Below, piece after piece: positions 50,792 through 57,997 of a stretch of 64,000 bases of DNA. A model generated the notes under the pieces. The model was not told the origin of the DNA and made no database searches. It saw only the letters and a program-made list of their open reading frames with translations. Numbering within the stretch: position 1 is the stretch's first letter; each line of letters opens with the position of its first letter. The translations under genes and the position numbers were made by a program. The stretch lies in the NCBI RefSeq assembly GCF_057098645.1, contig NZ_CM169472.1, one strand, 5' to 3'.

Positions 50792-51780
50792 ATGGGTCAA
50801 CTGATTGACGGCGTCTGGCATGACACCTGGTACGATACCAAATCTACCGGCGGTAAATTTCAACGTTCAGCTTCCGCATTTCGTAACTGGCTCACTGCCG
50901 ATGGCGCTCCTGGCCCCACTGGCACAGGCGGTTTTATCGCAGAGAAAGATCGTTATCATCTCTATGTTTCACTCGCCTGCCCGTGGGCGCACCGCACGCT
51001 GATCATGCGCAAACTCAAAGGACTGGAACCGTTTATTTCCGTTTCCGTAGTGAACCCGCTGATGCTGGAAAACGGCTGGACCTTTGATGACAGTTTTCCG
51101 GGAGCAACCGGAGATACGCTCTATCAACATGAATTTCTGTATCAGCTTTATCTCCACGCCGATCCACACTACAGCGGACGAGTTACTGTTCCCGTACTGT
51201 GGGACAAAAAGAACCACACCATCGTCAGCAACGAATCAGCAGAAATCATCCGCATGTTTAATACCGCGTTTGATGCGCTGGGCGCGAAAGCGGGTGATTA
51301 CTACCCACCAGCCCTGCAAACGAAAATTGACGAACTTAAAACGGCTGGATTTATGACACCGTTAACAACGGCGTGTATAAAGCCGGTTTTGCCACCAGCC
51401 AGCAAGCCTACGCCGAGGCGGTGGAAAAAGTGTTTGAATCGCTGGCGCGACTGGAACAGATTTTAGGTCAGCATCGTTACCTGACCGGCAACCAGCTAAC
51501 CGAAGCCGATATTCGCCTGTGGACCACGCTGGTCCGTTTTGATCCAGTGTATGTGACCCACTTCAAGTGTGATAAGCACCGCATCAGCGATTACCTGAAT
51601 CTGTATGGCTTCCTGCGCGATATCTACCAGATGCCGGGAATTGCCGAAACAGTCAATTTCGATCACATCCGTAATCATTACTTCCGCAGCCATAAGACCA
51701 TCAACCCTACGGGGATTATTTCAATTGGTCCGTGGCAGGATCTCGATGAACCGCATGGACGAGATGTTCGCTTCAGTTAA
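50792..51780 (+). pseudogene. yqjG: Glutathionyl-hydroquinone reductase (Xi-class GST) interrupted by a +2 frameshift
   Basis: Two overlapping ORFs (50771..51466 and 51373..51780) in different frames together cover one GST-like protein; in-frame lengths sum to 328 aa; frames swap at CTTAAAACGG near 51338. Confidence 0.7.
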
Positions 51781-51834
51781 AAAAAGGTACCTTACGAGGT
51801 GCCTCTGATAATTAGCTAAGTGCATGTTGTTCAT

Positions 51835-51935
51835 GTCGGATGCGGCGTGAACGCCTTATCAAACCTACAAAACATTTATATTCAATATGTTGCAAAGGCC
51901 GCGTAGGCCAGATAAGCGTAGCGCATCTGGCAATT
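51835..51935. repeat. REP/BIME cluster
   Basis: GTCGGATGCGGCGTGAACGCCTTATC...GGCCGCGTAGGCCAGATAAGCGTAGCGCATCTGGC. Confidence 0.75.
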
Positions 51936-52062
51936 TTGCGCTTGCCCTTATCCTTCACAGCTCCTTATTAATTCATCGCGATAATATTTACTGCCATTTC
52001 ATTCACGTCTATTCTTAATTTGCTGCTTTAAAAACAAGTGATTGAGCAAAATTGAGGCAAAA

Positions 52063-52380
52063 ATGGACTGGTATCTGAAAGTACTAAAAAATTATGTCGG
52101 TTTCCGGGGTCGTGCGCGGCGCAAAGAGTACTGGATGTTTATTCTGGTCAACATCATCTTTACGTTCGTGCTGGGGCTGCTGGATAAAATGTTAGGCTGG
52201 CAACGCGCTGGTGGCGAAGGCATCCTGACGACAATCTACGGTATTCTGGTGTTTTTACCGTGGTGGGCACTGCTATTCTTAATCCCGTTTATCGGCTGGC
52301 TTATTATCATCGTCTTTAACTGCCAGGCGGGTACGCCAGGCGAAAACCGCTTTGGACCTGATCCAAAACTGGAACCTTAA
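52063..52380 (+). CDS. yhaH: DUF805 inner membrane protein
   Basis: ORF-track 52042..52380; MDWYLKVLKNYVGFRGRARRKEYWMF. Confidence 0.8.
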   Translation: MDWYLKVLKNYVGFRGRARRKEYWMFILVNIIFTFVLGLLDKMLGWQRAGGEGILTTIYGILVFLPWWALLFLIPFIGWLIIIVFNCQAGTPGENRFGPDPKLEP

Positions 52381-52622
52381 AACAAATCTGCTCGCCGGAT
52401 GTCTGACTCATCCGGCTTTTATCATCATGTTGATGAATGAATAATTTACTAATGTTTATTTAAAATATTTCAATGTCGTTATATAAATTACCTATAAAAA
52501 AATAACCATGTATTTATCTTAAATATCAAAACCTTTATAACATCCAAAAAAGAAAGATACGAATAGCATTTACACAATACCCGGAATAGACTTTCGTCAC
52601 TTTTAATTAAAGGGATGTTTTT

Positions 52623-52979
52623 ATGCAGTGGTATTTATCCGTATTAAAAAATTATGTTGGTTTCTCTGGTCGCGCACGTCGTAAAGAGTACTGGATGTTT
52701 ACTCTGATTAACGCCATCGTCGGCGCTATTATCAATGTCATTCAATTGATTTTAGGTCTGGAGCTTCCATATCTGTCTATGCTTTATTTGCTGGCAACCT
52801 TCCTTCCCGTCCTTGCGCTTGCTATCCGTCGCTTACACGATACCGACCGTTCAGGTGCCTGGGCCTTGCTCTTTTTTGTTCCGTTTATTGGTTGGCTCGT
52901 GCTTCTGGTTTTTTTCTGCACAGAAGGTACTTCTGGCAGCAATCGTTACGGAAACGATCCGAAGTTTGGTTCAAATTAA
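52623..52979 (+). CDS. yhaI: DUF805 inner membrane protein, paralog of yhaH
   Basis: MQWYLSVLKNYVGFSGRARRKEYWMF, same N-terminal module as yhaH. Confidence 0.8.
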   Translation: MQWYLSVLKNYVGFSGRARRKEYWMFTLINAIVGAIINVIQLILGLELPYLSMLYLLATFLPVLALAIRRLHDTDRSGAWALLFFVPFIGWLVLLVFFCTEGTSGSNRYGNDPKFGSN

Positions 52980-53029
52980 TCTTAGAATTGGGGCGATATT
53001 TCGCCCCTTTTTATTAACAATAATAAATA

Positions 53030-53926
53030 TTATTTTCCGTTAAAAAGTTTGGGAATTTCCCGCAGACACCAGGATTTCGCTTCCCCCATACTGTCACGAC
53101 GCCAGGCCATAATAATATCGATCTCGCTGGTCGATTCCGGGCTGACGACACGCAACCGCCCTTCCGCAATATCTTTTTCGACCATCGGATACGGCATCGT
53201 CGCCACGCCAAGCCCCGCCAGTAATGCCTGACGTTTATCTTCAATCGTGCTCACCGTTAAGCGCGGCTGTTTGTCCAGCAGCTGTACAGTCAACACCGGG
53301 CGCTCACGAGCGGTATCCGCCACCGCAATTCCACGATATTTCACACGCGTCACTTCAGATAACGGTTCCGGCTCCTGATGAATCGGGTGATCAGGCGCGG
53401 CAACGTAGACGTTCATTAACGTATAGAGCTTGCGCGAGTTGATCTCCGACGAGGAACGAAAATGCATATCCGGCGCGATAACAATATCCGCCCGCCCCTG
53501 CTCCAGCCGTTCCCACGCCCCCGCCAGCACTTCTGTGATGATTGCCAGTTGGGTATTGGCTTTTGCCGCCAGTTTGTCGATTAACGGGAAAAAGGCAGGT
53601 GTCGGTACCAGCGCTTCGGTCACAATGGTGAGATGCGTTTCCCAACCGCGCGCGAGAGCTTCCGCATCAGTAGTCAGTTTATCTGCGGCTTCCAGCAAAA
53701 CGCGCCCTCGCTCCAACAACATCCTCCCGACATTGGTGAATTTGGTGCGATGGCCCGAGCGGTCAAACAGCACCACATCCAGCTCTTCTTCCAGTTTTTG
53801 CATGGTGTAGCTAAGTGCGGAAGGCACGCGTCCCAGCTCATCCGCTGCCGCCGCAAAACTGCCCCGGCGATCGATCGCATCCATAACCCGTAGTGCTTCC
53901 AGCGTTAATGCCCTTTCTTTGGCCAT
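53030..53926 (-). CDS. yhaJ: LysR-family transcriptional regulator
   Basis: 298-aa ORF with N-terminal HTH; divergent from yhaK. Confidence 0.85.
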   Translation of the reverse strand: MAKERALTLEALRVMDAIDRRGSFAAAADELGRVPSALSYTMQKLEEELDVVLFDRSGHRTKFTNVGRMLLERGRVLLEAADKLTTDAEALARGWETHLTIVTEALVPTPAFFPLIDKLAAKANTQLAIITEVLAGAWERLEQGRADIVIAPDMHFRSSSEINSRKLYTLMNVYVAAPDHPIHQEPEPLSEVTRVKYRGIAVADTARERPVLTVQLLDKQPRLTVSTIEDKRQALLAGLGVATMPYPMVEKDIAEGRLRVVSPESTSEIDIIMAWRRDSMGEAKSWCLREIPKLFNGK

Positions 53927-57722: not shown

Positions 57723-57997
57723 AATTTCTCGCTCAATATTTTGTAGGGCTTATTATTTTTTTCCGAGCCGCATCAAGGCGATATGCGGTCTACGTTTTTG
57801 CAGGCGAGTTATTAGAATAAAGAAATGATACGCGCGAGGTCAGAGAAAATCTTCACAATCAAGACTTTGAAATAACGGAGATGGATAAGAATTTTCTACT
57901 AAATTAATCGCAAGAGAATATTCATTCTCTATTTGCGGCAGATCACAAAAAAAAAGGTGCACATTTGTGCACCCAAGGATGAAAGCTGACAGCAATG

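Follow-up and report, generated by a model that had tools for sequence, protein, structure and literature searches.

A rare, recurrent in-frame deletion removes the invariant motif of the DUF805 family from YhaH, next to an accessory yhaI gene in Escherichia coli

The closest described counterparts of the genes studied here are YhaH and YhaI of E. coli K-12, which are the same genes with the same annotation and the same neighbours, in the order yqjF-yqjG-yhaH-yhaI-yhaJ-yhaK. In terms of mutation, the closest parallel is the lacI hot spot, where classical slippage deletions occur between short direct repeats. In terms of function, the parallel lies with inner-membrane host factors for phage genome entry, of which ManYZ (lambda) and PtsG (HK97) are the familiar examples. 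YhaH resembles this type in being an inner-membrane protein whose loss leads to phage resistance, but it is much smaller, and the likeness concerns its requirement for infection. In E. coli TK001, mutation of yhaH gives resistance to the Stephanstirmvirinae phages PhiWec188 and PhiWec190, wild-type yhaH restores sensitivity, and the authors regard YhaH as an inner-membrane protein required by both phages (bioRxiv 10.1101/2024.11.29.626071; PMC12695924). NfrB and TolA are listed beside YhaH as membrane proteins needed by the phages of that study (bioRxiv 10.1101/2024.11.29.626071). Beyond PhiWec188 and PhiWec190, we found no other functional result for DUF805 or YhaH in the literature, and no phage role is reported for YhaI.

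The DNA analysed here is a stretch of 64,000 nucleotides (the window), in which yhaH and yhaI lie adjacent on the same strand:

positions 52063 to 52380, plus strand: yhaH coding sequence, a deletion allele of 105 aa (normal length 121 aa), with the ribosome-binding site GAGG at 52054-52057; from ORF, Pfam, and alignment
positions 52623 to 52979, plus strand: yhaI coding sequence, intact, 118 aa, 44.3% GC; from ORF, Pfam, and annotation

A preliminary description of this DNA, made from the letters alone, had named the two as adjacent same-strand DUF805 paralogs. This assignment is borne out by the ORFs, by Pfam, and by the RefSeq annotation of the orthologues; both are already known E. coli genes, and the naming was correct. 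Against a Pfam gathering cut-off of 25.7 bits for DUF805 (PF05656), the yhaH allele scores 74.1 bits and yhaI 111.3 bits, and the two proteins are 47% identical by BLASTP (E = 5e-35). The region is annotated in E. coli O145:H28 RM12761 as yqjF-yqjG-yhaH-yhaI, followed by the convergent yhaJ and then by yhaK. The start of yhaH, previously placed at 52042, has to be moved: the TTG at 52042 opens the longest ORF, whereas annotation and homology both point to the ATG at 52063, which follows the GAGG at a distance of five bases. M-(D/N/E/Q)-W-Y is the N-terminus of every homologue compared. Set against K-12, the window yhaI is full length and of the wild-type sequence class, whereas the window yhaH is 105 rather than 121 residues long and lacks VQFRRLHDTDRSAWWA. 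As two annotated genes, the pair as first described adds nothing new; the genes were recognized correctly but the deletion in yhaH was overlooked, and it is this rare, recurrent in-frame deletion, which leaves yhaH without the family's invariant motif, that is worth recording.

Alignment with RM12761 reveals a clean 48-bp in-frame gap in the window yhaH. In the intact gene, two direct 11-bp copies of CGTGGTGGGCA, 48 bp apart, flank the deleted stretch, and the window has lost one copy together with the 37 bp between the copies. The other copy remains at the junction:

positions 52259 to 52269, plus strand: surviving copy of CGTGGTGGGCA, the deletion junction; from the alignment with RM12761 and a search with a junction 43-mer

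The 16 residues lost include RRLHD. Because the two 11-bp repeats are in phase, each coding for Trp-Trp-Ala, the reading frame is kept. The best matches to the window yhaH among 5,426 complete E. coli genomes are two-piece alignments that span 47-48 bases more than the window gene. In the other genera examined, yhaH lacks the second Trp-Trp-Ala and, with it, the complete 11-bp repeat. The 48 bp were likely lost by replication slippage or microhomology recombination between the repeats, and we infer slippage as the mechanism. Like the lacI hot-spot deletions, the yhaH deletion is bounded by an exact repeat, keeps one copy, and recurs; it differs from them in that the yhaH repeats share a codon phase and the product is in frame.

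The deletion takes out the most conserved element of DUF805. Across 30 homologues from Proteobacteria, Firmicutes, and Actinobacteria (a sample also given as four phyla), R73, R74, L75, H76, and D77 are invariant and R80 and S81 nearly so, and all of these positions lie inside the deleted stretch. The loop that joins helices 2 and 3 has the R-R-L-H-D motif in yhaI and lacks it in the window yhaH. The other two conserved motifs are found in both proteins: an N-terminal juxtamembrane motif, G-R-A-R-R-x-E-(Y/F)-W-M-F, in which G16, R17, A18, R19, R20, E22, W24, M25, and F26 are invariant in the same 30 homologues, and a C-terminal motif, N-x-(F/Y)-G-x-x-P-K, in which N111, G114, P117, and K118 are invariant. 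The window yhaH is a DUF805 member by descent, but a truncated one.

Both products are predicted to be small three-helix inner-membrane proteins of the DUF805 family. The AlphaFold2 model of intact YhaH (pLDDT 85.7) has an N-terminal helix followed by long helices at residues 20-44, 54-77, and 82-103, and it places RRLHD where helix 2 ends. By the positive-inside rule, under which arginine-rich segments are cytoplasmic, the two arginine-rich motifs would face the cytoplasm and the C-terminal tail the periplasm. Mapped onto this model, the deleted stretch would cover the end of helix 2 on the cytoplasmic side, the RRLHDTDRS loop, which is invariant, and the first part of helix 3. In the AlphaFold2 model of the deleted protein (pLDDT 79.1), helix 2 comprises just 11 residues (54-64), which as modelled would be too short to cross the membrane. 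The 105-aa YhaH is probably non-functional or mis-inserted, and yhaI would be left as the sole intact DUF805 gene of the locus. Counting against inactivity, the 105-aa form is in frame, retains the other two conserved motifs, is treated by RefSeq as an ordinary CDS, and is modelled by AlphaFold2 with moderate confidence even so. A PDB sequence search with the protein returned cytochrome b as its best match (E = 0.13), which is not meaningful, and a Foldseek search with the AlphaFold2 model found no solved relative (best E = 0.66).

The rarity of the allele was measured with a 43-mer junction probe, designed so that intact yhaH cannot seed a match. The junction is present in 4 of the 5,426 complete E. 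coli genomes (0.07%), namely DEC5D, two F11 records, and VG35A2. The 105-aa protein of these strains, identical to the window YhaH, is WP_000384142.1; it is annotated as an ordinary CDS under the name 'DUF805 domain-containing protein', and no record of it mentions its origin by deletion. In a 15-billion-protein collection the exact 105-aa YhaH occurs on 193 contigs, and the intact form on at least 1,000. The carriers of WP_000384142.1 share both protein and junction with the window but have other chromosomal haplotypes, 43-123 SNPs away over 4.2 kb, and their deletion events are therefore independent of that in the window. Deletion carriers as a whole fall into at least five distinct flanking haplotypes, 25-130 SNPs apart over 4.2 kb, and the window flank is 1 SNP from that of RM12761, whose yhaH is intact. 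The same deletion is also found in a divergent background in which the protein ends in '...KLEQE', as a 106-aa variant (P0002). Since the carriers are unrelated in haplotype and the nearest relative of the window is intact, these results show that the deletion arose repeatedly, as slippage between the 11-bp repeats predicts. The window allele and at least five other independent occurrences of the deletion constitute a ready-made test of the role of the RRLHD motif.

Two of the carriers have further changes in yhaI. DEC5D (L004/L011) combines the yhaH deletion with a stop codon in place of W79 of yhaI (TGG to TAG at codon 79), and GCA_026737755.1 (L008) combines it with a 7-bp insertion in yhaI at the RRLHD codons. 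Both DUF805 genes of the locus are damaged in these two genomes.

The sequences between and around the two genes contain several candidate signals for separate transcription:

positions 51987 to 52015, plus strand: candidate sigma-70 promoter of yhaH, TTTACT-17 nt-TATTCT, from a relaxed hexamer scan
positions 52381 to 52622, no strand assigned: yhaH-yhaI spacer, presumed promoter and regulatory region of yhaI, with one extra A at 52496 relative to RM12761
positions 52394 to 52423, plus strand: intrinsic-terminator-like hairpin, GCCGGATG...CATCCGGC then TTTTATC, 14 nt past the yhaH stop
positions 52445 to 52459, minus strand: CpxR-box-like element, GTAAA-N5-GTAAA with 1 mismatch (plus strand TTTACTAATGTTTAT), from a pattern scan and a lead only
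positions 52990 to 53012, plus strand: terminator-like hairpin, GGGGCGA...TCGCCCC then TTTTT, between yhaI and the convergent yhaJ

The spacer, noted earlier as AT-rich and about 240 bp long, measures 242 bp and has a GC content of 27.7% (23.2% past the terminator), within the lowest 0.11% of 242-bp windows in a 64-kb stretch with 52% GC. The hairpin 3' of yhaH has an 8-bp stem with 6 G-C pairs, and the first 60 nt of the spacer fold at -19.9 kcal/mol. A gap of this length, interrupted by a terminator-like hairpin and T-run, argues against a single operon. Citrobacter rodentium has the same layout, with yhaH, a terminator hairpin, a 223-bp spacer (29.6% GC), and yhaI. In published work the two genes also respond differently to regulators, among them the H-NS antagonist Ler. 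In array data, Ler activates yhaI 36-fold in EHEC, and yhaH is absent from the list (PMC3891560); likewise in array data, the CpxR effect is 3.2-fold (40.3 in brackets) for yhaI and 1.9-fold for yhaH (PMC2731931). In Salmonella, the sRNA SdsR represses yhaH mRNA (PMC5137417). The predicted transcription start of yhaH, at about 52022, lies about 41 nt before the ATG and fits the 43-nt leader of the SdsR-repressed Salmonella yhaH reporter (PMC5137417). A strict sigma-70 consensus scan returned no promoter (3.6 expected by chance), and for yhaI the relaxed scan gave weak, distant sigma-70-like candidates only.

The independent promoters proposed in the preliminary description are supported, indirectly, by the terminator hairpin, the C. 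rodentium layout, and the differential regulation; the scans did not locate the promoter of yhaI itself. From these observations we infer separate control of yhaH and yhaI, which is well supported, and read-through from yhaH into yhaI may also occur, because consensus scanning found no yhaI promoter. yhaH has a terminator of its own and, probably, a constitutive promoter of the sigma-70 type, and yhaI is reported in published work to be induced conditionally (Cpx, Ler). An Rfam scan of 51700-53100 returned nothing in the spacer and a weak, sub-threshold naRNA4 match (25.4 vs 59.5 bits) over a REP element upstream of yhaH. This REP/BIME-type palindromic element occupies 51829-51960, between yqjG and yhaH, where strains differ from one another in a 10-bp indel and clustered SNPs. 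The extra A at 52496 in the spacer (A7 vs A6 in RM12761) is either real or a sequencing error.

The two genes differ in their distribution. In a synteny scan of Enterobacteriaceae with one genome per species, yhaH occupies this position in every locus examined, whereas yhaI is missing from the locus in about 16 of the 19 lineages. The order yqjG-yhaH-yhaJ-yhaK without yhaI is seen in Klebsiella, Raoultella, Citrobacter werkmanii, C. youngae (C. freundii group), Kluyvera, and Enterobacter, and further in Cedecea, Shimwellia, Siccibacter, Pluralibacter, E. albertii, and a divergent genome deposited as E. coli. Within E. coli, 4,352 of the 5,426 complete genomes (~80%) carry full-length yhaI and 1,012 (~19%), including Nissle 1917, have an empty site. 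In the empty state, yhaH has the end '...KLEQD', and a different hairpin separates it from yhaJ, which comes next; in the yhaI-bearing state, the C-terminus of yhaH is KLEP and the terminators differ. yhaI and its spacer together form a presence/absence segment of about 650 bp (window 52375-53028 vs L095 2860-2905). As each state has a unique junction sequence, the two behave as old alternative alleles and not as a fresh insertion or deletion. No yhaI remnants are found in the yhaI-less relatives (L020, E. albertii), where the intergenic space holds a REP element. The gene of yhaI-less E. coli was also considered as a yhaH/yhaI fusion and rejected; it is a normal yhaH with the '...KLEQD' end and its own terminator.

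In E. coli, yhaI is an accessory, dimorphic gene and not a fixed paralogue. yhaH is the conserved core gene of the locus, and yhaI with its AT-rich upstream region forms an accessory segment beside it. We regard it as likely that the locus combines a separately transcribed core yhaH, present here as a deletion allele that is probably inactive, with an accessory yhaI.

Relative to the window, yhaI falls into two allele classes, one about 95% or more identical and the other about 84-90% identical, the second in roughly half of the yhaI-bearing genomes. Members of the second class (L006/L007/L012; window 52770-52950) are mosaic, with 85% protein identity, identical ends, and a middle that is about 25% divergent, a pattern that suggests an imported segment in the middle. 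The gene also contains a homopolymer that varies in length:

positions 52909 to 52915, plus strand: T7 homopolymer within yhaI, of wild-type length here; examined by T6/T8 simulation

The simulated T6 and T8 products of yhaI are identical to the frameshifted proteins P0084 (139 aa, 345 public contigs) and P0072 (131 aa, 190 public contigs), and some of these frameshifts could be homopolymer sequencing errors. In Superficieibacter, 3-4 tandem DUF805 genes lie between yqjG and yhaJ (L013 2269-4289; L014 2197-3854), including two very divergent copies (32-37% identity).

As to the origin of the accessory segment, lateral gain of yhaI and its AT-rich flank beside a resident yhaH, followed by exchange among Escherichia, Citrobacter, and Superficieibacter through homologous recombination via the flanking core genes, is a serious candidate that we hold tentatively, at somewhat less than an even chance. 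It is in keeping with the low GC content of yhaI (44.3%) and of the spacer (27.7%) in a 52% GC window, with the presence/absence polymorphism in which each state has a unique junction and terminator, with the two allele classes some 15% apart, with the patchy occurrence across genera, and with the strong Ler dependence of yhaI (PMC3891560). However, three genera share the tandem layout in synteny, as vertical descent with losses would also predict, the segment has no mobile-element remnants at its flanks, and the tree is unresolved. An ancient duplication followed by many losses also fits these data.

Selection offers another account of the yhaH deletion itself, namely that it was favoured because it confers resistance to YhaH-dependent phages. 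That the window allele lowers susceptibility to such phages is plausible by analogy, because the yhaH mutant of TK001 is phage-resistant, and natural variants of yhaH and yhaI could help explain strain differences in susceptibility to these phages. The resistance to PhiWec188 and PhiWec190 and its complementation (bioRxiv 10.1101/2024.11.29.626071; PMC12695924), the presence of the deletion in at least five backgrounds, and the two carriers in which yhaI is broken as well (DEC5D by W79stop, GCA_026737755 by +7 bp) all speak for selection. The 11-bp repeat hot spot, however, predicts recurrence without selection, and an allele that is very rare (0.07% of complete genomes) and confined to shallow lineages is what is expected of a mildly deleterious or neutral change. 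A recurrent mutation that is neutral or slightly harmful would account for the low frequency and shallow spread no less well than selection, and we consider positive selection unlikely. A broader form of the idea, in which DUF805 proteins would act as inner-membrane entry factors and the whole yhaH-yhaI locus would be under phage-driven diversifying selection with one hot spot per paralogue (the yhaH 11-bp repeat yielding the 16-residue deletion, and the yhaI T7 run yielding the T6/T8 frameshifts), is likewise an unlikely speculation by analogy. yhaI is itself a present/absent two-allele cassette, and if the idea were true the window yhaH allele would be a natural phage-resistance variant. PHROG 12855 ('membrane protein', moron category) is matched by both YhaH (E = 5e-22) and YhaI (E = 8e-28), which means that some phages or prophages encode a DUF805-like domain. 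PADLOC gave no match for either protein, and NCBIfam gave sub-threshold matches only.

Returning to the pairing of a core yhaH with an accessory yhaI, the preliminary description had attributed the pair to a local duplication, pointing to a near-identical N-terminal module, WYL-x-VLKNYVGF-x-GRARRKEYWMF, visible even in the DNA. The module itself is confirmed by pairwise alignment: 22 of 24 residues are identical between YhaH and YhaI, as are 58 of 72 nucleotides (80.6%), with a longest exact shared word of 19 nt. The same ~26 N-terminal residues are, however, near-identical in Bacillus, Paenibacillus, Lysobacter, and Exiguobacterium. Since the module is family-wide, its conservation is uninformative about the age of any duplication. 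Over the 72 nt of the module, yhaI is 82% identical to a Paenibacillus gene and 81% identical to yhaH, and the identity with yhaH of other genera is 76-86%. In a trimmed alignment, YhaI has 56% identity with YhaH and 57-61% with homologues from Firmicutes and Lysobacter. Between genera, YhaH orthologues share 70-87% identity, and the closest YhaI homologues outside Escherichia share 60-68%. In a neighbour-joining tree with 200 bootstraps, a YhaI clade of E. coli, C. rodentium, and Superficieibacter has 66% bootstrap support and an exclusive YhaH+YhaI clade 8%, so that the tree does not group YhaH with YhaI.

It is doubtful, even more so than selection, that a local tandem duplication of yhaH gave rise to yhaI fairly recently and left the module as its remnant. 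In favour of it, the two are same-strand neighbours of one family, the module is conserved at both the protein and the DNA level, and C. rodentium and Superficieibacter share the tandem layout. Nevertheless, Firmicutes and Xanthomonadales conserve the module equally well, its DNA in yhaI is 82% identical to that of the Paenibacillus gene, the identity of YhaH and YhaI (47-56%) is not above that of YhaI with distant phyla, the tree shows next to no support for grouping the two, and most genera have no yhaI at the locus. The two genes do not come out as mutual closest relatives, and they share no DNA similarity beyond what protein constraint accounts for. The claim of a local duplication, taken as a recent event, is for these reasons not sustained. 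Gene conversion between the 5' ends of yhaH and yhaI was also considered and rejected; codon-level identity between the two in E. coli is not above that between yhaI and yhaH of other genera.

That the 48-bp deletion is an assembly or sequencing artefact of the source genome is extremely improbable: two single-A homopolymer differences from RM12761 (52496 and 57947), which may be sequencing errors, and an AA insertion that frameshifts yqjG slightly lower the trust placed in the assembly, but a 48-bp loss is an atypical error, the gap is exactly 48 bp, in frame, and bounded by an exact 11-bp repeat, assemblers have no known failure by collapse at an 11-bp repeat, and 193 public contigs as well as independent complete genomes carry the identical junction.

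The window as a whole is E. coli DNA; over its 64 kb, 14 SNPs, a single IS insertion, and a few small indels separate it from O145:H28 RM12761. Among the indels is the AA insertion at 51338-51339 in yqjG (50792-51780). Compared with RM12761 and four further E. coli, it expands AA to AAAA, and the window reads TTAAAACGG in place of TTAACGG. The resulting frameshift splits this gene for glutathionyl-hydroquinone reductase into two ORFs directly upstream of the deleted yhaH. The extra A at 57947, in a poly-A run of the cyuP-tdcG intergenic region, is again either real or a sequencing error. The IS insertion is a 1,331-bp segment at 32654-33984, absent from RM12761 and with a 5-bp overlap at the junction; it carries IS2-type InsC/InsD-like ORFs and lies inside the higB toxin gene of higBA.
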